Shown: piece by piece, positions 1-44,177 of the stretch | Numbering within the stretch: position 1 is the first letter of the stretch | How the letters are laid out: every line of letters begins with the position of its first letter | Notes under the pieces: model-generated | The model's database searches: none | What the model was told of the DNA's origin: nothing | What the model saw: the letters and a program-made list of their open reading frames with translations, nothing else | Made by a program: the position numbers and the translations under genes | Source of the DNA: Patescibacteria group bacterium UBA6241 | GTDB taxonomy: Bacteria > Patescibacteriota > Minisyncoccia > Phycocordibacterales > Phycocordibacteraceae | DNA length: 64,000 nt | Assembly: GCA_002441425.1 (NCBI GenBank) | Contig: DJWB01000001.1 | Location: 15,087 to 79,086 of the forward strand | Direction: 5' to 3'

Positions 1-626
1 TCAAGGGAACCGGGGTTTACCTGAAGGTGAACTCCGCCCTGAGAGCCTGCGGCTACGATCTCATCCGTGAGATCCAGTTGCGCGACTTGCGGGTCTTCGC
101 TGACCTCAAGCTGATTGACATCAGCGAGACGCTTTCCACGGACGGCGTTCTCTTGCGCGAGGCGAAGCCGGAGCTGCTCACCACCATGTGCGTCTCCGGT
201 GTCACTGCCATGCAGGCTCTGAAAGCTGAACTGCCGGACACGGAAGTGCTCGGCGTGACGGTGCTCACGAGCCTTGCGGACGCCGACACGCAGGCGATGT
301 TCACCTGCCAGACCGAGGAAGCCGTTATGCGGTTCGCCCAGGTCGCGGCAAACGCGAATATCGACGGCCTCATCTCGTCTCCCAAGGAGGTGGAGATGCT
401 TCGGGCAAAGTTTGGTCTCGTTCTGTCGCTCAACACGCCGGCCATCCGGCCGACGTGGGCGATCGTTCCGGGCGATGACCAAAATCCGGAGCGGATCATG
501 ACTCCGGAAAAGGCCATCAGGGCCGGAGCGGATCGCATCGTCGTGGGGCGTCCGATCGTGGGGGCTAAAAGCCCCTATGACGCGGTCATGCGCACCATTG
601 ATGAAATCGCCATGGCTACGTCGTAA
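1..626 (+). CDS. pyrF: orotidine 5'-phosphate decarboxylase, 5'-truncated at window edge (high-GC, GC3-rich codons)
   Basis: Frame is open from nt 3. Motifs DLKLIDI, VGRPI and the C-terminal region match OMP decarboxylase. The N-terminal ~45 aa lie outside the window. GC is far above the downstream DNA. Confidence 0.6.
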   Translation, partial: KGTGVYLKVNSALRACGYDLIREIQLRDLRVFADLKLIDISETLSTDGVLLREAKPELLTTMCVSGVTAMQALKAELPDTEVLGVTVLTSLADADTQAMFTCQTEEAVMRFAQVAANANIDGLISSPKEVEMLRAKFGLVLSLNTPAIRPTWAIVPGDDQNPERIMTPEKAIRAGADRIVVGRPIVGAKSPYDAVMRTIDEIAMATS

Positions 627-1241: not shown

Positions 1242-1850
1242 ATGAATCTCAGAAAGTTTTACATGGGCCGTGCAATAGGGTTTTTCATCCTTCTCGCTAT
1301 TGTCGGTCTGGTTGCTGCATTCTATTCATTTAATTCCTATATCTATAACGAGAAACAAGCACCTGCTGCAGCTGATTACAAAGATGCAGAATACAGAATT
1401 GATGGGACGCAAGTTCAGCTCAAAGACGGAGTAGCAGAGGTTGAAGCAGCACCCGGATCTGCTTCAAAGATAACGACTCGCTACTTTGGAAACGAGCACA
1501 AGACAGATATTAACGATGATGGGCGAGAGGATGTTGTCTTTTTGGTAACACAGGAGACCGGCGGAAGTGGGATTTTCTATTACGTAGTGGCAGCGCTCAA
1601 CACAGAACGTGGATACGTTGGTTCAGACGGGTATCTCTTAGGAGATAGAATTGCTCCTCAAACGATCAACGCAAGCCCGAATCCACGACATAAGAATGTT
1701 GTAGTCGCGAACTATGCCGATAGGGCTACTGGAGAGCCAATGACCGCACGACCTTCAGTTGGCAAAAGTGCATATTTGAAACTTGATGAGGCTAGCATGA
1801 TGTGGGGAATCGTTGAACCAGACTTTGAAGGGGAAAGTTCCGGTCTATAA
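1242..1850 (+). CDS. membrane-anchored hypothetical protein (N-terminal TM then extracytoplasmic domain)
   Basis: ATG at 1242 is in frame with ORF 1197..1850. One N-terminal TM is followed by the motif NSYIYNEKQ, which is also present in the 7953..8549 protein. Confidence 0.45.
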   Translation: MNLRKFYMGRAIGFFILLAIVGLVAAFYSFNSYIYNEKQAPAAADYKDAEYRIDGTQVQLKDGVAEVEAAPGSASKITTRYFGNEHKTDINDDGREDVVFLVTQETGGSGIFYYVVAALNTERGYVGSDGYLLGDRIAPQTINASPNPRHKNVVVANYADRATGEPMTARPSVGKSAYLKLDEASMMWGIVEPDFEGESSGL

Positions 1851-1887
1851 AACAAGGAAATAGCAGGGTAAAAGGGCAGATACGTCC

Positions 1888-1916
1888 TTGACACAACCCT
1901 ATATATGGTCTATTAT
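1888..1916 (+). promoter_or_regulatory. sigma70-like promoter TTGACA-N17-TATTAT
   Basis: TTGACA at 1888-1893, 17-nt spacer, TATTAT at 1911-1916. It points into the 2097..3233 gene. Confidence 0.4.
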
Positions 1917-1957
1917 AAGGAAAGAGATCTGGCCTTTGGCAATAGAAACTATCCATG

Positions 1958-2010
1958 TTCGGTTTCAGCTCTAAGTGGCTTACCTAAAGCATTTTAGAGC
2001 TGAAACCGAA
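1958..2010. repeat. 17-bp perfect inverted repeat (TTCGGTTTCAGCTCTAA ... TTAGAGCTGAAACCGAA) with a 19-nt loop, in the leader of the high-GC gene
   Basis: Arms at 1958-1974 and 1994-2010 are exact reverse complements. No U-tract follows on either strand, so it is not a classic intrinsic terminator. Confidence 0.7.
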
Positions 2011-2096
2011 TTCACCGATGGTGAGCGGCCAGCTGATACGCGTACACTGTATCGTGTTTTTCACTCACCATCATAAGAGAAATCTGGAGAGCTAAA

Positions 2097-3233
2097 ATGG
2101 TTAAAGAGACAAAGACCTTGGGCGAAAAGGTCCAGGAAGTCACGAACTGGTCCCTGGTGGACTGGTTGTCCGTGGTCTTCCCGCTGGTGTCGGCGTTCGC
2201 CACCTTCCACGGGGCGAACAAGCTGATCGGCAACAGCCTCTACGCCTTCGGCGTCGCAATCGTCGCCTTCTTCTTCATCGCGGCCTTCTATCGGTCGTAC
2301 CTGAAGTGGTATCCGTCGGCCAACGACAAGCAGAAGCGCAAGCTGCTGCTGCCGATGGTCGTCTTCGGCGTCTTCGCCATATGCCTGACCACACCGTTTT
2401 CGGTGGCCACCTTCGGTGGCGAGGTCGCGCTGCGCAAGGACTTCGAGCGGACGATCGCGACCGCAGAAGCGCGGACGAACCAGCGGATCGGCGACCTGAA
2501 CCGGGAGCTCGCGCTCTCGTCTTCGCTGGGCTCCTATGGTCGGCAATTCTCCGACCTGGCCCAGGCAGAAGCCGCCGGCTCCTTCACGGGCGTCAGCGGT
2601 CGCGGCGACGCGGCGGTCACCTTTGAGACGGTGGGCAGATCCCTGACGGCGATGAGCCGGCAGGTGGAAGCCAACCGTGCGGTCGTGGAGCGCCTGAAGG
2701 AGCAATCCAAGGCGATCATCCGCGACCTCCGCACCATCTCCTACCTGCGCGTCAGCCAGCAGGAGAAGGTCTCGCGGTTCGCCGCACGTCTGAACGATCT
2801 GAACGATCTGTTCGCCCAGATGGACGCCGCCTCAGTCCTGCCGTCGGTCGCGCAATCGGCCGGCAGCCTGGACATGGTCGCGAACCTGCGTTCGGGTGAG
2901 GCGGGCACGGACCTCGGTCAGCGCCAGTCGCAGACCATCGCCCGCGCCGGTGAGCTGGTGACCCGCGCACAGCAGGACATCAGCAAGACCACCGCCGACC
3001 TGACCAACCAGTCCGAGGAGCTGGCTCCGCTCGCCGTCATCGACGAGAGCGAGGCCATCTTCAAATACTGGCAGGTGATCATCTGGGCGTGGGCGGCCGC
3101 CATCGCTCTGGACTTCGCCCCGCTCCTGTTCCTGTTCATGCTCAGCCAATTCCACGGCATCGAGCGGACGCAGCGCCGGAGCGCGAAGAAGCCCAAGGAG
3201 GAGGACGGCAAGGTGACGCACCTGCGTCGCTAA
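2097..3233 (+). CDS. hypothetical membrane protein with a central coiled-coil region (3 N-terminal TMs, ~220-aa helical/coiled segment, C-terminal TM(s), basic tail), ~66% GC
   Basis: It is the longest ORF in a region where high GC opens ORFs in every frame. RBS GGAGAG lies 6 nt upstream, with promoter and terminator flanks. GC is ~20 points above its neighbours. Confidence 0.55.
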   Translation: MVKETKTLGEKVQEVTNWSLVDWLSVVFPLVSAFATFHGANKLIGNSLYAFGVAIVAFFFIAAFYRSYLKWYPSANDKQKRKLLLPMVVFGVFAICLTTPFSVATFGGEVALRKDFERTIATAEARTNQRIGDLNRELALSSSLGSYGRQFSDLAQAEAAGSFTGVSGRGDAAVTFETVGRSLTAMSRQVEANRAVVERLKEQSKAIIRDLRTISYLRVSQQEKVSRFAARLNDLNDLFAQMDAASVLPSVAQSAGSLDMVANLRSGEAGTDLGQRQSQTIARAGELVTRAQQDISKTTADLTNQSEELAPLAVIDESEAIFKYWQVIIWAWAAAIALDFAPLLFLFMLSQFHGIERTQRRSAKKPKEEDGKVTHLRR

Positions 3234-3280
3234 GTCGTCTCCTGCTCCTGTGAACGGATAGCTTCTAACGCCTACAAATG

Positions 3281-3316
3281 CCCCGGGGACCGAAAGGTTT
3301 CCGGGGTATTTCTTTT
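3281..3316 (+). terminator. rho-independent terminator (CCCCGGGGACC-GAAA-GGTTTCCGGGG + TATTTCTTTT)
   Basis: GC-rich hairpin followed by a T-rich tract immediately after the 2097..3233 stop codon. Confidence 0.55.
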
Positions 3317-3362
3317 GAAAACTACTTACATATAGATACATACCCCTGCTATACTCTTTGGT

Positions 3363-5963
3363 ATGAAAAAGGGTGTGCAACTAACTCTGCTTGGACTGCT
3401 CAGCATGTCCTTCTTTTTTAGTGTTGTTCCGCAGGTGTTTGCCGAGTGGGAACTTGCGGGAAGCAACAGTCTTGCAGGCACTACAAACGTAGCACTTCCT
3501 ATTACAGATCTTCAGATAACGGGAAGCGGAACTGAACCAATTCCAGTGAAACTTGTTGTAACAAGTGGGACACTTGCGATGAGCCAAACCACCGGGCTCA
3601 CTTTTACAGGAGGAACCTCAGGATCAACATTGCAATTTAGTGGAACTCAAGCAAACGTAAATGCAGCGCTTGCAACACTTACGTATACAAGGAGTGGCAC
3701 CGGCTCAGATACGTTGGAAGTGTCTTTGGTGCGTCCTGGGGAAGTCTTCTTTGAAGAGAATGGACACTTGTATGAATACATTTCAGATGCGGGTACGTGG
3801 AATGCAGCAAAACCAAAAGCTGAAGCACTCACGAGATATGGGGCAACAGGATATCTTGCAACGATTCTTTCTTCTGCAGAGAATGCATTCGTAACGGCAC
3901 GTCTTCTTGGTGCGGGCTGGATGGGAGCGAGCGATTCTGAATCTGAAGGAACCTGGAAGTGGGTAACCGGTCCTGAGACAGGGACATCGTTCTGGTCAGG
4001 TACTGCAGGGGGAAGCACCATAGGTGGAAATTACGCTAACTGGGGATCAGGGGAACCAAACCAGTCGGGGGAAGAAGATTGCGGGCAGTTTCTCGCGGGA
4101 GGCACAGGCAAATGGAATGACCTTCCTTGTGGAAGTAGCAGCCTTGCAGGATACGTTGCAGAGTTCGGTGCGTCCGGAGCACTTCCTACTGTGGTAGCTA
4201 AGAACATCACTATTACTACGAGTGCACTCCCTGTGGTGAGCACACTCTCTCCAGCAGACAACGCAACTGGAGTAGCTATTAATGCAAACCTCGTAATTAC
4301 TTTTAGCAAAACAGTTTCAACAAGCACCGGGGAGATTGCTATTAGAAAAGTGAGCGATGATTCGCTTGTTGAAAGTATCGCGGTTACGGGTGGACTAATT
4401 TCAGGAAGCGGGTCAAACACCATAACCATTAATCCAAGCACCACGCTCGCAGAGAGTACGGCGTACTACGTAACTATCCCGAACACTGCGTTCAAGGATA
4501 GTCTAGACAATTTCTATACAGGTACTGCTGCGAGTACTACTTGGAATTTCACAACAGGAGACTTTACTGCACCCGCCCTAAGTGCCATTACGGCAACCAG
4601 CACTGCTACAACATCAGTAATATCTTGGATCACTGCTGAGAATGCTTCAACGAAAGTAGTGTTCGGACTCACTACTGCATATGGAACCACAACTCCAGAG
4701 ACAAATACTTCGTCACGTGTCACATCTCACGAAGTAACGCTCACTGGTCTCGTGCGTTGCGCAACATACCATTACGCAGTCGTGTCTAGAGATGCAAGTT
4801 CAAACGCAGCCACCTCAACAGATAGCACACTAAGAACAACAGGCTGTACGGCTGAATCAGCCCCTACTACCGCTACATCAACTGCAATAACAACCTCTTC
4901 AGGAGGATCCTCTCAACTTACTGAAAACAGCACTACTATTACGGTAGATGCACCCGCGGACTTTACTGATGAATCATCCTCAGTTGTTATTCAAGTGCAG
5001 GCAATTGCGGGCGATACAATTCTGGCTTCGCTCGGAAGACCACAGAGCGTTCCGAGAGAAGTTGGGACTATTGTGTTTGATGTAAAGGCAATCATTGATA
5101 ACACTACGGTCCTTGATTCATTTGATAGTCCGGTAACGATTACATACCAATACGCTGATGCAGATACTGCAGGATTAGATGAACCTACTTTTTGGTTGTA
5201 TCACTATCATGACGATGCCTGGGAAGCACTAGATAGTTGTACGATTAATACAGATACAAACACTATTAGCTGTACTACTCCAAACTTCTCCATCTTTGGA
5301 TTGTTTGGACAAGCACTCGCCGCAGACTCCTCTCGTACGCATTCATCTACACGAGTAGGCTGTAAAGATGTTGCTGCTCAGAACTACGATGCCTTTGTCT
5401 CACACCGGCAAGATCTCTGCGTGTACAAAGCAAGCGCTACCCAAGCCCAAACAAGTGCGTTCACTCGAGATCTTACTCTAGGATCAGTAGGTGAGGACGT
5501 GCAGAGACTGCAAGTCTATTTAAACAATCACGGCTTTACGCTTGCAGCTACTGGACTCGGGTCTCCCCAAAACGAGACAACTACATTTGGAGCTCTTACG
5601 AGAGATGCGCTGAGCAAGTTCCAAATAGCAAAGGGAATTACTCCAGCTGTAGGATATTTTGGACCGCTGACTCGTTCATCCATACTGGATATGGTTACAA
5701 CGCCAATAGTACAAAATACTACTTCTGCGCTACGTGATCTTGAAATGGGAATGAATGGGGAAGATGTACGTAAACTACAAGACTTTCTTATATCTAAGTC
5801 TTTCACTATTGCAGCAGGCGCAACAGGATATTTCGGCAGCCAAACAAAGGATGCATTAATTGCGTATCAAAAGGCAAGTGCTATTAGTCCTGCAGCAGGA
5901 TACTTTGGTGCCCAAACCCGAGCGTATATACTACAGACTAATAAGGAATCAGCTTGGTGGTAG
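3363..5963 (+). CDS. secreted multidomain surface protein: signal peptide, C-type-lectin-fold domain, Ig-like/FN3-like repeats, two C-terminal peptidoglycan-binding (PG_binding_1-like) repeats
   Basis: Signal peptide MKKGVQLTLLGLLSMSFFFSVVPQVFA. C-type-lectin signature WMGASD..GTWKW..GEPNQSGEEDC..GKWNDLPC. Ig-like repeat NATGVAINANLVITFSKTV. Tandem PG-binding repeats GEDVQRLQVYLNNHGF and GEDVRKLQDFLISKSF. Confidence 0.55.
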   Translation: MKKGVQLTLLGLLSMSFFFSVVPQVFAEWELAGSNSLAGTTNVALPITDLQITGSGTEPIPVKLVVTSGTLAMSQTTGLTFTGGTSGSTLQFSGTQANVNAALATLTYTRSGTGSDTLEVSLVRPGEVFFEENGHLYEYISDAGTWNAAKPKAEALTRYGATGYLATILSSAENAFVTARLLGAGWMGASDSESEGTWKWVTGPETGTSFWSGTAGGSTIGGNYANWGSGEPNQSGEEDCGQFLAGGTGKWNDLPCGSSSLAGYVAEFGASGALPTVVAKNITITTSALPVVSTLSPADNATGVAINANLVITFSKTVSTSTGEIAIRKVSDDSLVESIAVTGGLISGSGSNTITINPSTTLAESTAYYVTIPNTAFKDSLDNFYTGTAASTTWNFTTGDFTAPALSAITATSTATTSVISWITAENASTKVVFGLTTAYGTTTPETNTSSRVTSHEVTLTGLVRCATYHYAVVSRDASSNAATSTDSTLRTTGCTAESAPTTATSTAITTSSGGSSQLTENSTTITVDAPADFTDESSSVVIQVQAIAGDTILASLGRPQSVPREVGTIVFDVKAIIDNTTVLDSFDSPVTITYQYADADTAGLDEPTFWLYHYHDDAWEALDSCTINTDTNTISCTTPNFSIFGLFGQALAADSSRTHSSTRVGCKDVAAQNYDAFVSHRQDLCVYKASATQAQTSAFTRDLTLGSVGEDVQRLQVYLNNHGFTLAATGLGSPQNETTTFGALTRDALSKFQIAKGITPAVGYFGPLTRSSILDMVTTPIVQNTTSALRDLEMGMNGEDVRKLQDFLISKSFTIAAGATGYFGSQTKDALIAYQKASAISPAAGYFGAQTRAYILQTNKESAWW

Positions 5964-32609: not shown

Positions 32610-34541
32610 CTAAACTCCGATGAGAACAGGAATAACCATAGGCGCCTTGTTGGTTCTCGTGAAGAGATATCCGGCCATGGTGTCTGAGAGTGCGTTCTTT
32701 ACGTAATCCAGATCAACCGGGTTCATACCTTCAGTTGAATCCTCAACCGTCTTCTTAATCAAAAGACGAGCCTGGTTAAGCATTTCCTGATTCTCACGAA
32801 GATATACGAATCCGCGAGAGATAATATCTGGAGACTTGCGAAGCTTTCCTGTCTTAAGGTTAACGGTTGCGATGATAACAAACATACCGTCCTTGGCGAG
32901 CATCTGGCGGTCACGAATAACCACCTCCTGCAGGTCGCCAATAGAGAATCCGTCCACTACAAGTGGTGCTGAAGGCACCTTCTGCTTGTGGTAGTTAAGC
33001 TTCTCTCCACCTTCCTCAATATCAATAACCATACCGTTATCGGCAAGGATGATTGATTCGCGAGGGCGTCCTGCTTGCTCAACTGCACGCGCATGACTTG
33101 CAGTCATTGAGTAGTAGCCGTAGGCAGGCATGAAGTACTTAGCGCCAACTTGCTGGTTAATCCAAATCAGCTCGCCAGTGTTTCCGTGTCCTGTTGAGTG
33201 CACGTCACTTGAGCGGTAGTGAATGAGGGTTACACCGTTGCGGTACAAGTTGTCCTTTAGCTTCTGCACTGAGATTTCGTTCCCAGGAATAACAGAAGAG
33301 GAAAGCACGATAGTATCGCGGTTGTTCAGCACAATGCTTTTGTGCTGCTTGGTTGCAATACGCATAAGCGCAGCAAACTCTTCTCCCTGAGCTCCGGTTG
33401 AGAGAATAACAATTTTGTCTGGAGGATAATCTCCAATCTCCTGAGAGCTGATGATCGTGTCCTTCTTAACAGTAAGAAGTCCTGTCTTCTGTGCAATCTC
33501 AAGGTTGGTCTTAATAGATCGTCCTTCAGTGATTACTTTCTTTCCTAGTGACTCAGAGATCTCAATGATGCGTACCATGCGCTCAAACTGAGACGCGAAG
33601 GTTCCGATAATGAGTCGCCCCTTAACGGTACGAATAATCTCTTCAAGAGTCTCATGCACTTTGCGCTCAGGCACTGAGAATCCGTCACGTTCAGCGTTAG
33701 TTGAGTCTGCAATGAAGAGCAAGTTCTTTTGCTTTCCAAGTGCTCCCCATTTCTTTGCTTCAGTTTCGGTTGGAATACCGTTCTCATGGTCAAGCTTAAG
33801 GTCTCCTGTTGCAATAACGTTTCCGTATGGTGTCTCAATCGCAATACCCATTGAGTCTGGGATTGAGTGTGTAACCGGGAAGAACTGCACTTTTGTGGAG
33901 CCAATAGTCATGGTTGATCCAGGCTCAACAGTCACAATATTTAGTTCTGGTTGATCAGGATATTCTTCCTGTCGCTTCTTGATCATCACTGCAGAAAGGT
34001 TCTGCGTGTAGATGGTCGGATTACCCATACGATTCATAAGGAAGGGAATACCTCCAATATGGTCTAGGTGTCCGTGTGTGATGAATACTCCGCGAATGCG
34101 GTCTTGGTTCATCTCAAGGTAGCGGGTGTTTGGAAGGACGTAATCAACGCCAGGAGAGGTGTCCTCAGACACAAACTGGAATCCAACGTCAAAGACAAAG
34201 ATGTCGCCATTGGTTTCAATGGTGAACATGTTGCGTCCAACCTCTTCAACTCCTCCAAGAGGAACAACACGGACCACGTCCTTTCCAGGAGCCTCAGGGA
34301 AGTAATCCGGAGCCTTCTTAACAGGAGCAGGATGATTCCCGGTCTGTGGACCGCCTGGGCGGCGCATAGTGCGCTTGGCTGGTCGTCCGCTGCGAGGAGC
34401 CCCTCCTTCTTTTCCTCGTGTACGAGGACGTTGAGGGCGGGCACCATCAGTGCGTCCCTCTGTGCGAGGAGCGGCACTTGGTGCAGAGTGCGCTGCGCGG
34501 CCGTGTGGGGCAGGCGCCGGCGCTGGTGCGGGTGCTGACAT
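32610..34541 (-). CDS. rnj: ribonuclease J (beta-CASP metallo-beta-lactamase RNase) with Ala/Pro/Arg-rich N-terminal extension
   Basis: HGHLDHIGG motif, beta-CASP motifs, C-terminal domain. The N-terminal ~100 aa are low-complexity. Confidence 0.8.
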   Translation of the reverse strand: MSAPAPAPAPAPHGRAAHSAPSAAPRTEGRTDGARPQRPRTRGKEGGAPRSGRPAKRTMRRPGGPQTGNHPAPVKKAPDYFPEAPGKDVVRVVPLGGVEEVGRNMFTIETNGDIFVFDVGFQFVSEDTSPGVDYVLPNTRYLEMNQDRIRGVFITHGHLDHIGGIPFLMNRMGNPTIYTQNLSAVMIKKRQEEYPDQPELNIVTVEPGSTMTIGSTKVQFFPVTHSIPDSMGIAIETPYGNVIATGDLKLDHENGIPTETEAKKWGALGKQKNLLFIADSTNAERDGFSVPERKVHETLEEIIRTVKGRLIIGTFASQFERMVRIIEISESLGKKVITEGRSIKTNLEIAQKTGLLTVKKDTIISSQEIGDYPPDKIVILSTGAQGEEFAALMRIATKQHKSIVLNNRDTIVLSSSVIPGNEISVQKLKDNLYRNGVTLIHYRSSDVHSTGHGNTGELIWINQQVGAKYFMPAYGYYSMTASHARAVEQAGRPRESIILADNGMVIDIEEGGEKLNYHKQKVPSAPLVVDGFSIGDLQEVVIRDRQMLAKDGMFVIIATVNLKTGKLRKSPDIISRGFVYLRENQEMLNQARLLIKKTVEDSTEGMNPVDLDYVKNALSDTMAGYLFTRTNKAPMVIPVLIGV

Positions 34542-40954: not shown

Positions 40955-41041
40955 GGAGGCGTCGCATAGTGGTCTAGTGCACCGCCTTGGAAAGGCGGCA
41001 GGCCTGAAAGGGTCTCGAGAGTTCGAATCTCTCCGCCTCCG
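40955..41041 (+). tRNA. tRNA-Ser (anticodon GGA)
   Basis: Manual fold: 7-bp acceptor GGAGGCG/CGCCTCC, anticodon loop TTGGAAA, long variable arm, T-loop GTTCGAATC. CCA not encoded. Confidence 0.75.
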
Positions 41042-41090
41042 CACTAAAAACCTGTTATCGGCAGACCCGAGTGCCTGATATAATGGTCAT

Positions 41091-41615
41091 ATGGTATCGG
41101 CTTTCGTTATATCTCAAATATTGGTGGGAGGGGCACTGGTTTTGAACCTACTCTCCTTCCAATTCAAGAGGCGAGTGGTCGTCATTACACTACTCGCTCT
41201 CTCGACAGCTCTTGTCGCAGGCCAACTTTATTTCCTCGGACAAGCAACTGCTGCCCTCCTCGTTCTCTACGCTGTTGTCTATTTTCTTGTAAGTCTCAAG
41301 ACTATCGATCGCCGCGTAATGGCCTTGTTTATGCTTGGTGCGGTGGCGATATTCGTCACGCGCTACTCGTCTTGGCTCGACTGGTTCATGGTTGTCTCAA
41401 GTCTTCTTACTCTGCTTTCCTTGTACAACCCAAGTCAGAAGCGAATGCGTGAGTTCCAATTCGCAGGAACTTCCGTCCGTATCGCGTATTACAGTATTTT
41501 GTTCTCACCTGTCGGCATTCTCCTTGAAGTCGCCTTGCTCATTTCCAATATAACGAGTTATTGGCGTTTTTATGTAAAAAGTCAGCCGACCCACAGACCT
41601 CGGCAGGTTCCATAG
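41091..41615 (+). CDS. YgjV-like inner membrane protein
   Basis: 174 aa polytopic. Motif resemblance to the Imp-YgjV family. Slightly higher GC and a different codon flavour from its neighbours. Confidence 0.4.
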   Translation: MVSAFVISQILVGGALVLNLLSFQFKRRVVVITLLALSTALVAGQLYFLGQATAALLVLYAVVYFLVSLKTIDRRVMALFMLGAVAIFVTRYSSWLDWFMVVSSLLTLLSLYNPSQKRMREFQFAGTSVRIAYYSILFSPVGILLEVALLISNITSYWRFYVKSQPTHRPRQVP

Positions 41616-41751
41616 AAATGCCCCAGAATACCCTTGTGGGGTCTCACCGCTCTGGTACTGAACCCGACTGTCCCGCCTGAAGTGCTTAGTATCGGAAGAG
41701 TTCGCCATAACCTATCTTGTTGAAGACCACACTTAATGGGATAATAAATGT

Positions 41752-42213
41752 GTGTCCAGGTATTTTCAAAACAAGCAACTTTGGCGATGGATAGGTCTCA
41801 TTCTCGTGGGAGGACTAGTCTTGGTGTCATGGTGGGCAGGGTGGTTTCAAATTGTTTTCTATATTTTGGGGTTGTATGCGGCCGTTTATATAATTTCCTA
41901 TCTTTTTAGGACTACTGCAGTAATAGGTTTCCTGCTCGCGATTGGGGGAACGATTTTGTATATAGGATCACTGCTGCTCGGTCTTTACCTACTTTGGCAA
42001 ATTTTAACGATGATGTTCACTGGAAGCTTTCTACTAGGTTTTCTTTTTCTGTTACTTCTTGGAGCATTTGGTAGTTTCGTACCAATGGCAGTCGGCATGA
42101 CCCTAGGCTACCCTCTATTGTTCATATCAGAAGATATTGAAAGGAGATTCCCTTCGGTTGAATCACCCCAACCTAAAAAAGTTGAGTTTACAGAAATAGA
42201 AACAGGGGAATAA
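41752..42213 (+). CDS. 4-TM small membrane protein (hypothetical), low GC
   Basis: 153 aa, W-rich TM helices, acidic C-terminal tail. Confidence 0.4.
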   Translation: MSRYFQNKQLWRWIGLILVGGLVLVSWWAGWFQIVFYILGLYAAVYIISYLFRTTAVIGFLLAIGGTILYIGSLLLGLYLLWQILTMMFTGSFLLGFLFLLLLGAFGSFVPMAVGMTLGYPLLFISEDIERRFPSVESPQPKKVEFTEIETGE

Positions 42214-42214
42214 A

Positions 42215-42559
42215 ATGACAATAAGCAAAAGAAAAAATACCGTACTGTTAGCTGCAGTTATTTTTCTTTTCCTCGCCTTATTTGATGGGTGGCAGTATGG
42301 ATTTTTTACTATGCTGCGCTTCGTTGTTTTTGCAGCGACTGCGTATGTTGCCTGGTTAGCCTATAAGGGGCAAAAAGAGAAATGGGTTTGGGTTTTTGGA
42401 TTTATTGCTGTGCTTTTTAATCCTCTCATCCCTATATACCTCAATCGTGAAACTTGGACGACGATCGATCTTATCGTAGGTCTATTTCTATTACTATCAA
42501 TACATTTCTTTAAACTGAAAGAAGAAATAACTTTAGGTACTTCTTCAAGCAATACCTAG
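42215..42559 (+). CDS. 3-TM small membrane protein (hypothetical), low GC
   Basis: Start 1 nt after the previous stop, so translationally coupled. 114 aa. Confidence 0.4.
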   Translation: MTISKRKNTVLLAAVIFLFLALFDGWQYGFFTMLRFVVFAATAYVAWLAYKGQKEKWVWVFGFIAVLFNPLIPIYLNRETWTTIDLIVGLFLLLSIHFFKLKEEITLGTSSSNT

Positions 42560-43155
42560 TCCCTTTTCTTAAGTGTCTCGTACACATGCTCCCCAAGCTG
42601 AAACTTCTGTTGAAGCCCTTGAACAGATCCAGCTTCAAACCATTCTGAACTGAGGTCCAAAGCAACAGGATCTTCGCTACGATATGTATTCCAACCCAAA
42701 AGAAGCGTTGCGCCTGGCTTCATAATCTTAGCCATAGCTTTAAATGCTTCTCGCTGTCCTTCAGCAGTATTGATACCCCATCCAAATACGCCATTGCAGA
42801 ACACAACATCAAATTCATTCGTAGGGAACAACTGGTCTGCCTTAGTTAAGTCTCCTATTACATGACGTCCTGGATTCCCCCAGCGAGCCTGGTCTGCTTC
42901 TAGCTCAAGTGTCCAGCAAGTGCCCTCATTCTTTTCTAGAAGTTTTGAATATGTGCGTGTGTACCGCTCACACCCAACCCACAACATGGTGCCGCCATTC
43001 TTTGCGAACAAGGGAAGTATCTTCTTAACTAGAAAGACGCGATCCGGACTGCGCATTGCCCAGAAATACCCGAAGAGTTTCTTCTGCATCTTCTTTGGAA
43101 GAAGAGCAACTGACTTTTTGAAGAGGGTACGGAAAGGTTTCGTAAGGGATTCCAT
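42556..43155 (-). CDS. putative class I SAM-dependent methyltransferase
   Basis: Motif-I-like GTMLWVGCE and post-I DVVFCNGVFGW. Start taken at MESLTKPF. Confidence 0.4.
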   Translation of the reverse strand: MESLTKPFRTLFKKSVALLPKKMQKKLFGYFWAMRSPDRVFLVKKILPLFAKNGGTMLWVGCERYTRTYSKLLEKNEGTCWTLELEADQARWGNPGRHVIGDLTKADQLFPTNEFDVVFCNGVFGWGINTAEGQREAFKAMAKIMKPGATLLLGWNTYRSEDPVALDLSSEWFEAGSVQGLQQKFQLGEHVYETLKKRD

Positions 43156-43715: not shown

Positions 43716-44050
43716 ATGGACCGGTCCAGACGGTTGCTCTTGCGTGTTTACACGCTGGAGAGGAAAGTCCGAACACAGGCAGCATCTGCTGCAGACAGGT
43801 AGCGGGTAACGCCCGTCCGCCGAAAGGCGCGAGGTGCGAACAGAAACGCTCAATTCCGAAAGGATAGAGACTCTTTCAAAGAGTGTCCTGAAGGCGACTT
43901 CAGGCTGAAACGGCTAAATCCTTACCCCTGTGCAAGGCCGTGCCCGTCATTGTGCGGGAGCGCCGCTTGAGGGTGTTGGTAACAACACTCCCAGATAGAT
44001 AACCATCCTCTTCTTTGAAGGGACAGAATTCGGCTTATCGGACCGGTATC
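43716..44050 (+). ncRNA. rnpB: RNase P RNA (bacterial type, reduced ~335 nt)
   Basis: GGAAAGTCCG (P4 5' strand), GGTAACGCCCG, ACAGAAACGCTC and the 3' ACAGAATTCGGCTTATCGGACCGG, which pairs with the 5' GGACCGGTCC. Boundaries are approximate. Confidence 0.65.
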
Positions 44051-44177
44051 CATCATTCGTGCAAAACCCGCCCTAACCGGCGGGTTTTGCCTATGTATGT
44101 CCCCACCTTTATAGAGGGGTGCTCATGCGTGCGCGGTATACTGAGGATATTACCAGGGCCGTTTTTAATTATATCTA

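Follow-up and report, generated by a model that had tools for sequence, protein, structure and literature searches.

Positions 1888-3320 of the 64,000-nt stretch of Patescibacteria group bacterium UBA6241 analysed here (contig DJWB01000001.1; the whole stretch is called the window below) are a genuine one-gene expression cassette on the chromosome of a Paceibacteria bacterium (Patescibacteria, or candidate phyla radiation, CPR). It combines a promoter, a structured leader, a GC-rich gene for a 378-amino-acid (aa) membrane protein of an unannotated family and a terminator. As judged by comparison with the closest homologous loci, the leader is conserved upstream of the gene with compensatory changes, and complementarity between the two untranslated regions (UTRs), 5' and 3', is kept with different sequences. 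The unit was probably acquired horizontally, and its product is most likely a surface-exposed envelope protein whose predicted expression would be strong but controlled. Taken together, this suggests a horizontally moving gene cassette with mRNA-level control, which codes for an unannotated family in an unstudied phylum. To the reading as a whole, i.e. a cassette from a GC-richer lineage, UTRs acting in the mRNA and arms serving for exchange, we assign a probability of roughly 45%.

The expression cassette and its elements

The elements of the cassette are the following (positions in the window, all on the plus strand):

1888-1916 (+), sigma-70-type promoter TTGACA-N17-TATTAT, 11 of 12 consensus matches
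1923-2096 (+), structured 5' UTR (leader) of about 175 nt, with the start inferred from the -10 box; minimum free energy -64.6 kcal/mol, z = -6.0
1937-1960 (+), 5' element complementary to the 3' UTR, core TAGAAACTATCC at 1943-1954
1957-2011 (+), P2, the long leader hairpin, with a perfect 17-bp inverted repeat at 1958-1974 / 1994-2010
2017-2072 (+), P3 helix, GAUGGUGAG (2017-2025) / CUCACCAUC (2064-2072); -23.4 kcal/mol, z = -3.9
2086-2091 (+), Shine-Dalgarno (SD) sequence GGAGAG, 5 nt before the ATG at 2097, read from the sequence
2097-3233 (+), open reading frame (ORF) of 378 aa for a membrane protein of an unannotated family, with four transmembrane (TM) segments and a predicted helical ectodomain of about 225 aa
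3251-3273 (+), 3' UTR element complementary to the leader, core GGATAGCTTCTA at 3256-3267
3276-3320 (+), intrinsic terminator, 16-bp stem 3276-3291 / 3296-3311 followed by UAUUUCUUUU

The promoter, with its -35 box TTGACA at 1888-1893, a spacer of 17 nt and its -10 box TATTAT at 1911-1916, is the best-scoring site in the first 8 kb of the window. As the number of promoter-like sites in these 8 kb is no higher than in shuffled sequences, the match alone proves nothing; a perfect TTGACA and a TATAAT-like -10 box were also found at the same place in the homologous loci L004, L005, L006, L064, L065, L066 and L068. At the other end, a G+C-rich stem-loop stands directly before the U-tract, the 87-nt segment of the 3' UTR around it has a fold of -31.8 kcal/mol, and homologous terminators follow the gene in L004, L005 and L006. 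The gene is therefore monocistronic between its own promoter and its own terminator, and its neighbours are an unknown protein of 202 aa and a lectin/peptidoglycan-binding protein. A first-pass annotation of the window had described a self-contained transcription unit with a near-consensus promoter, a leader holding a perfect 17-bp inverted repeat without a U-tract, a GC-rich gene and an intrinsic terminator, and each of these elements was found at the place it had given or a few bases away.

That the plus-strand ORF is a real gene follows from full-length alignment to 224 representative clusters of homologues, a confident AlphaFold2 model (mean pLDDT, the predicted local distance difference test, of 92) and the period-3 GC pattern of 2097-3233 (GC1 0.61, GC2 0.44, GC3, the GC content of third codon positions, 0.89). 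The gene calls of a second assembly of the same DNA (ENA ERZ27315056) show two antisense ORFs instead, of 214 and 169 aa (L154 4820-5464 (-) and 5591-6100 (-), corresponding to window 2061-2705 and 2832-3341). The true 378-aa gene is therefore missing from that annotation. GC3 is 0.57-0.60 in the antisense ORFs versus 0.887 in the plus frame. Spurious antisense calls are a typical artefact of GC3-rich genes, and the practical lesson is that public annotation can call them in place of the real gene.

The same assembly bears on whether the cassette belongs to its contig at all. The first-pass annotation had considered an assembly chimera, in which a GC-rich fragment of another organism was mis-joined into a low-GC contig, and the sharp compositional break is the sole point in favour of it. 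Identical DNA with the same neighbours is present in JGI 3300001594 (52-kb contig) and in ENA ERZ27315056 (608-kb contig, 0 mismatches to the window over 8.6 kb), and ENA ERZ23486821 also holds the cassette with both junctions. Both junctions are thus identical in three independent assemblies from different samples and pipelines, and promoter, leader and terminator are host-like in GC and homologous to those of the gene's relatives, so that, as far as assemblies can show, a chimera is hardly conceivable and was rejected. The host is a CPR bacterium of the Paceibacteria, because the GroEL encoded in the window shares 96-97% identity with those of two Patescibacteria metagenome-assembled genomes (MAGs) and 86-90% with those of Paceibacterota/Parcubacteria MAGs.

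The structured leader

Folding of the leader, which the first-pass annotation had proposed as a check, gave the strong structure listed above. The P2 palindrome as RNA reaches -33.7 kcal/mol (z = -8.2) with no U-tract behind it, and the inverted repeat extends to 24-nt arms at 88% complementarity. Within P3, a 9-bp helix, lie a small hairpin (2031-2058), a U5 run (2057-2061) and a conserved box, GGUGAGCGGCCAGC, which is also present in L004, L006 and L064. When the leaders of the window, L004, L041 and L006 were aligned, the order P2, P3 and conserved box was retained, and 85% of the aligned cells were paired compared to 34-48% when the partners were slid against each other. Eight pairs were changed on both sides (one or two in the slid controls), and none of 500 shuffles reached this combination of pairing and double changes. 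P2 contributes 24 aligned pairs, five of them changed on both sides and 88% of the cells paired, and in P3 three of ten pairs carry double changes. A further compensatory change, CGAGU/ACUCG to CGGGU/ACCCG, distinguishes the small hairpins of L004 and L041. As only three of the aligned sequences are independent, we consider this covariation supportive, not conclusive. Of the two earlier proposals for the palindrome, an operator or an RNA structure but not a terminator, it favours the RNA structure.

A covariance model built from the alignment (R1) matched window 1923-2077, L004, L041, L006 and L031, but nothing else in the window or in 158 kb of related loci, and the leader is therefore not a dispersed repeat. 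Likewise, a search for further copies of the palindrome arm gave no second occurrence in the 64 kb. Rfam had no match in the leader (1917-2096; cmscan of 1700-3500 at E<=10), and a scan of the window at gathering thresholds gave RNase P RNA and tRNAs and no other family. The stem before the U run is short and weak, the run starts 3-4 nt behind it, and the terminator scan calls none here, which is why we do not treat it as an established attenuator. At L064, the locus of a homologue with 34% identity (P0007), a promoter of this type, a long hairpin in the corresponding position and the box GGUGAACGACCAGCAAG suggest that parts of the leader are old. Two further candidates were dropped: a leader peptide MFGFSSKWLT (ATG at 1955) is unconserved in L004 and L006, and a pairing between the 3' arm of P2 and the region of the start codon (repeat I15) is unconserved in L004.

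Complementarity of the 5' and 3' untranslated regions

In the close clade, the 5' partner lies 24-31 nt from the inferred transcription start and the 3' partner 0-25 nt after the stop codon. These positions are homologous in L004, L041, L005, L006 and the window, and the paired sequences differ between loci as follows:

L004: 5' CAATAGAGGTATTCC, 3' GGAATACCTCTATTG, 15 nt perfect
L041: 5' and 3' segments as in L004, 16 nt perfect
L005: 5' CAAGTTTATTTC, 3' GAAATAAACTTG, 12 nt perfect
Window: 5' TAGAAACTATCC, 3' GGATAGCTTCTA, 11 of 12
L006: 5' GCACGGGTATCA, 3' TGATACC..CGTGC, 7+5 with a bulge

As unrestricted RNAduplex runs on the whole UTRs were uninformative, they were replaced by a test for ungapped complementarity and by local duplex folding. 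The local duplexes of the five units comprise 16-18 pairs at -18 to -26 kcal/mol, and in four of the five no shuffle out of 500 reached the duplex energy; the window duplex (1937-1960 / 3251-3273) has 18 pairs and -19.8 kcal/mol (0/500 shuffles as good). The 3' element sits between stop codon and terminator in all five units. Both partners thus lie between promoter and terminator and therefore on the same transcript, so that the five units share a same-transcript 5'/3' UTR complementarity of the kind known from hbs and icaR. The local folds of L004 and L005 leave the 3' partner unpaired. Shorter complementarity was seen in two distant members at non-homologous positions of the leader (L068, 9 nt; L065, 8 nt), and the remaining distant members had none.

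Exchange of the cargo in a sister lineage

A scan of metagenome contigs with a DNA pattern of P2 led to 53 loci, of which three were real (L031, L041 and L054, all from the sample with the P0002 locus, P0002 being the closest homologue) and the rest chance matches in coding DNA. L031 carries a DsbA-like gene, promoter and leader and ends inside the leader. L041 and an independent 7.4-kb contig, L151, show the same DsbA, promoter and leader as the P0002 locus, followed by genes for membrane proteins of 511 and 357 aa that replace P0002 and, behind these, by the same 3' element, terminator and Zincin_1 gene. Between the two versions, identity is 98% in the leader and 91-93% in the flanking genes. 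The sequences part directly after P3 (...CCACCATCA/, with CCACCATCA/ACCCG in L004 and CCACCATCA/CAAAC in L041) and reconverge at the 3' element (/GGAATACC..., with ...CAGGCC/GGAATACC and ...GTGAACT/GGAATACC as the 3' junctions).

The alternative cargo is GC-rich as well (GC 0.635 and 0.677). Its proteins gave no family match, PADLOC included; the 511-aa protein had no homologue but itself, and it was rejected as a member of the P0002 family (hhalign probability 2.7%). Behind Zincin_1, L151 and L041 carry an additional 429-aa ORF (L151 5884-7173, L041 3384-4673) that the P0002 strain (L003/L004) lacks, a second difference in gene content within 3 kb.

Composition and origin of the gene

With a GC of 0.646 and a GC3 of 0.887 in a window of GC 0.483, the gene is the top outlier among 629 windows of 1137 nt (robust z of 9.8 for GC and 11.9 for tetranucleotides, the scores that the first-pass annotation had suggested computing), and none of the non-overlapping windows is as deviant. 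The claim of an unusually GC- and GC3-rich ORF therefore stands. The closest homologues, from other metagenomes, are P0002 (81% identity), P0003 (55%) and P0004 (46%); four close homologues lie in four different neighbourhoods, and P0002 is flanked by genes of 59-62% GC. Compared to strain L002, the window shows six single-nucleotide differences in the 192 nt before the promoter (window 1693-1884, L002 1-192), all in the gene for the 202-aa protein at its 3' end; the 1553 nt that follow are identical. The tract free of differences starts at 1885, 3 nt before the -35 box, and a recombination edge therefore coincides with this box. Sharp compositional break, lineage-specific neighbourhoods and an identical cassette in two strains that are 3% apart upstream agree with the earlier impression of an acquired unit.

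A close homologue was not found in 185,579 GTDB species representatives, host relatives at 96-97% GroEL identity included, by a search with two peptide patterns in MAGs that are incomplete, and an alignment search of viral contigs for close homologues found no relative. Composition, sharp borders and patchiness thus point to horizontal acquisition, with the caveat of a GC3 excess throughout the family, which is weighed below.

Two other stretches of the window deviate in composition. Window 1-626, with its continuation upstream (L001 7049-8530), is a second high-GC island (GC about 0.60-0.62) with a 238-aa ORF of unknown function and pyrF (GC3 0.79), a gene unusual in CPR genomes. No TTGACA promoter and no structured leader were found there, and the island is probably another acquired segment. 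The most AT-rich stretch, and the most deviant one after the cassette, is window ~41500-42700 (GC 0.405-0.417) between tRNA-Ser (40955-41042) and RNase P RNA (43718-44053).

The protein and its family

By an exhaustive HMMER search (E<=1e-3), the family has at least 224 representative clusters, formed at 50% identity, whose alignments cover the full length with identities of 20-55%. A profile search of a set of 5.8 billion proteins, in which the candidates were saturated on low-complexity words, added one new cluster, P0154. The hydrophobic segments (three N-terminal, one C-terminal) and the basic tail are as the first-pass annotation had described them; the extended coiled coil that it had placed between them did not hold, as AlphaFold2 predicts a bundle of long helices and no classical coiled coil. 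In the model, TM3 runs into a bundle of 35-45-residue helices, about 225 aa in total, outside the membrane, from which TM4 returns. Both termini are predicted to be cytoplasmic by the positive-inside rule, with six K+R versus one D+E in the TM2-TM3 loop and nine versus four in the C-terminal tail. Conserved throughout the family are G39, GG107-108, E158, G161, the loop SGxxG168xG170 and D339 inside TM4 (AWAAAIALDFAPL); the invariant features are the Gly-rich loop E158..G161..SGxxG168xG170 and the Asp D339 in the last TM helix.

The earlier statement that the protein could be assigned to no characterised family was borne out by searches of Pfam, NCBIfam, PADLOC and PHROGs, which gave no match above noise for the query. 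The same holds for Pfam with 59 family members (E<=0.01) and for the DUF4407 and ZorA families that had been put forward as candidates. No informative fold match was obtained, the source names of ten family clusters all read 'hypothetical protein', and the family is absent from phage and viral collections. Given its size and an all-helical model of high confidence with a domain exposed at the surface, the family is a candidate for a role in the envelope or in host contact of episymbiotic bacteria.

Two distant homologues stand in other gene contexts. On the megaplasmid pRPC1 of Rhizobium sp. BG4, a 449-aa homologue (25% identity over 95% of the query; L150 5962-8566, region 1237172-1238257) overlaps by 4 nt a 269-aa ORF with a weak match to the Clp-protease fold, with a 150-aa ORF next to it; the Clp-like ORF may be a conserved partner outside the CPR. 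In L007 (1161-5001) a homologue with 33% identity and a GC3 of 0.61 is the third gene; the two ORFs before it, of 716 aa and of 160 aa (the latter hydrophobic at its N-terminus), are without family match, and a leader is lacking.

Proposed mechanism and alternative explanations

In the mechanism we propose, the promoter-to-terminator cassette would have entered a genome of about 46-48% GC from a Paceibacteria lineage of about 60% GC and would not yet be ameliorated. The hairpins of the 5' UTR together with the 5'/3' clamp, i.e. the pairing of the two ends, would, similar to hbs, shield the transcript from decay of the RNase J/Y type, gate its translation or link translation to stability. With this UTR control added to a consensus promoter and a strong terminator, an envelope protein would be expressed robustly but under control. 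Conserved leader and 3' element would double as homology arms for exchange of the cassette, including replacement of the cargo. That the UTRs act in the mRNA in this specific way is drawn by analogy, and we propose it tentatively, with the odds somewhat against it. RNase J1 and a CshA-like helicase are both encoded in the window. The RNase J1 gene (32610-34541 (-)) has a GC-rich N-terminal extension of about 90 aa rich in Arg, Gly and Pro (34270-34541); a 'high-GC ORF' at 34068-34538, which a naive ORF scan returned on both strands, is this Arg/Gly-rich N-terminus read on the other strand and was rejected.

Several observations weigh against this reading. Homology searches give the protein no function. 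The leader alignment comprises three independent sequences only, and inverted repeats bound by one DNA-binding protein or recombinase would covary likewise; as such DNA sites would evolve in concert, covariation alone is no proof of a role as RNA. G-U pairs are absent, so that the strand cannot be discriminated. The pairing in L006 is weak (77 of 500 shuffles are as good) and in the distant homologues L063, L064, L066 and L007 it is absent or non-homologous, and transcription start, 3' end and long-range pairing are predictions. The absence of close homologues from GTDB depends on two short TM-segment peptide patterns and incomplete MAGs. Finally, the GC3 of the family gene exceeds that of its neighbours, rpsT and rplK included, in nine of nine loci, with hosts ranging from 37% to 60% GC and the excess from +0.05 to +0.49, and in L006 (960-3353) and L063 (4083-6854), with 46% and 35% identity to the query, the family gene adjoins rpsT (S20) and ruvA. 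This synteny argues for some vertical inheritance and suggests that the side of rpsT/ruvA is the ancestral position in part of the Patescibacteria.

Since the GC3 excess is seen in all nine loci, those in hosts of 37-40% GC included, a single transfer does not explain it; recurrent transfer from GC-rich lineages, selection on the mRNA or GC-biased conversion could each contribute. High GC3 might then be a property of the family and not a trace of recent transfer, brought about by selective removal of AU-rich RNase sites that stabilises the mRNA or by GC-biased gene conversion, which frequent recombination at the locus would drive. Besides the excess itself and the vertical descent suggested by the rpsT/ruvA synteny of two distant members, recombination at the level of the cassette, which has been seen directly, speaks for this, and a link between recombination and GC3 is known in bacteria. 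An excess of +0.49, however, is far above what codon selection usually brings about, high GC is also found in the pyrF island and in the swapped cargo, which is unrelated, and the neighbourhood differs in every close homologue. A family property and transfer are compatible with each other; we consider the former rather unlikely as the explanation.

The leader could also be a riboswitch or a protein-dependent attenuator, with P2 and the box binding a ligand or protein and the hairpin and U run in P3 terminating transcription unless a competing local hairpin, UCACC-GAU-GGUGA, or P3 forms. A long, conserved and strongly structured 5' UTR would fit this, as would the invariant base of P2 (CGGUU..AGC / GCU..AACCG) and the box GGUGRRCGRNCAGC, the hairpin with a run of U3-U5 that is kept with a compensatory change in the window, L004, L041 and L006, and the two mutually exclusive partners of GAUGGUGAG; as in riboswitch classes, the same leader drives unrelated cargo in L041. 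Yet Rfam gave no match even at E<=10, the U run lies 3-4 nt behind a short stem with two or three G-C pairs that the terminator scan does not call, and the apical loop of P2 is unconserved. The leader is moreover tied to one gene family and one swapped cargo, and L005 keeps the 5'/3' pairing without P2 and P3, all of which makes an attenuator unlikely. If the complementary elements acted on the DNA instead, they might be inverted recombination sites that flip the gene against a fixed promoter, or a platform for cassette exchange, a non-integron analogue of attI/attC. The repeats are indeed inverted, flank the remainder of the leader and the cargo with the promoter outside, and are perfect over 15-16 bp in L004 and L041; the replaced cargo spans exactly the stretch from the end of P3 to the 3' element, and the leader contains breaks of the assembly graphs (the end of L031 and the starts of L003 and L041). 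But the orientation is the same in all eight contigs, and up to 10 kb to the left and right the called genes include no recombinase, integrase or transposase family. The repeats of the window match imperfectly (11/12) and those of L006 contain a bulge, the swap has its 5' breakpoint about 130 nt downstream of the 5' repeat, and by eye neither junction shows an integron-type GTTRRRY core. DNA sites are thus improbable. Slightly more so is a toxic effector in the membrane, similar to those of abortive infection or of type I toxin systems, whose full-length mRNA would be silenced as in hok, with its 3' end folded back on the 5' end. The conserved Asp within a TM helix of the membrane protein, a pairing formally like the hok fold-back and a gene that is sporadic, strain-variable, foreign in composition and part of a swappable cargo would suit it, but the protein with its 378 aa and large ectodomain is unlike toxins of fewer than 60 aa, no antisense promoter is predicted, and the promoter is consensus with the SD exposed. 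There is no PADLOC or PHROG match, phage and viral collections lack the family, neither a recombinase nor a defence gene lies within 10 kb, and homologues are placed among housekeeping genes (beside rpsT/ruvA, secE-nusG-rplK and ftsH); the defence or abortive-infection effector that the first-pass annotation had offered as an example is not supported.

A variant that goes beyond the mobile cassette with mRNA-level control, and that we regard as speculative and rather improbable, is that the conserved promoter with leader and the 3' element with terminator form a reusable expression frame of Paceibacteria. GC-rich genes for membrane proteins would replace one another in the space from the end of P3 to the 3' element, independently of a recombinase or via an unrecognised one, and the elements would both control the mRNA and set the borders of exchange. 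If this were true, frequent exchange with GC-biased conversion could explain the GC3 excess of the family. Cargo swap and GC3 excess together give a concrete case of the exchange of accessory surface genes in reduced genomes.

Comparison with known systems

In the order of its domains, i.e. N-terminal TM segments, a long helical domain and a further TM helix, the protein is similar to DUF4407 and ZorA/MotA proteins. DUF4407 (PF14362) gave no hmmscan match with the query (E<=0.1) or the 59 members (E<=0.01), PADLOC returned 0 families at E<=1, ZorA included, and Pfam MotA_ExbB had no match with query or members. PADLOC-DB 2.0 had none for the query, the swapped cargo and the operon partners of a distant homologue. 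A ZorB/MotB/ExbD-like partner is not adjacent to the gene, the unit being monocistronic, and the helical domain is predicted to be extracytoplasmic, unlike the helical tail of ZorA, which is cytoplasmic.

With integrons, the cassette shares a fixed promoter-proximal platform, a swappable cargo with GC above that of its flanks and a folded palindrome. By eye, no GTTRRRY/RYYYAAC core was seen at the junctions, and no intI or integrase was detected among the Pfam families of called genes within 10 kb on either side. Unlike in integrons, there is a single cargo per unit, the palindrome is 5' of the cargo and transcribed, and promoter, leader and terminator travel with the gene across lineages, so that the likeness is limited to a fixed platform with exchangeable foreign cargo.

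Long 5' UTRs with stable hairpins are found on mRNAs of abundant envelope proteins such as E. coli ompA and the S-layer genes, and a consensus-like promoter with a long hairpin 5' UTR before a gene for a putative envelope protein is what the cassette has in common with them. There is no homology, and the 3' UTR partner is present in the cassette only; to our knowledge, none has been described for ompA or S-layer mRNAs. The 5' and 3' ends of hok mRNA of the hok/sok system do pair by fold-back, and here the similarity is a membrane-protein mRNA whose 5' end would pair with its 3' end. The product of hok has about 50 aa, the cassette product 378 aa and a large ectodomain, and no minus-strand promoter-like site was found in 1888-3320, which sets the unit apart from type I toxin-antitoxin systems.

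mRNAs with matching 5' and 3' ends are uncommon in bacteria, and by analogy the cassette would work most like the hbs/icaR class of such 5'/3'-UTR interactions. In icaR from S. aureus, the SD region is paired with the 3' UTR, with the result that translation is blocked and a site for RNase III arises (PMC3868564). In both cases an intramolecular pairing of the UTRs is proposed as post-transcriptional control; the icaR 3' UTR masks the SD sequence, whereas in the close clade of the cassette the 5' partner is about 150 nt upstream of it; a partner close to it is seen in L068 alone (27 nt before the ATG). In B. subtilis hbs, a structured 5' UTR and a 14-bp interaction between 5' and 3' UTR control the access of RNase Y/J1 (PMC5737220). 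Both hbs and the cassette have a 5'/3'-UTR pairing and both hosts encode RNase J; hbs codes for a small, abundant DNA-binding protein, the cassette for a 378-aa membrane protein, and the UTRs share no sequence or structural homology, the pairing of the cassette being predicted. CPR bacteria have tiny genomes and almost no experimentally characterised regulation. If the proposed mechanism is true, leader and clamp would count as one of the first architectures of cis-regulatory mRNA known from the CPR and, beside hbs and icaR, a third and conserved example on the very short list of bacterial 5'/3'-UTR interactions.

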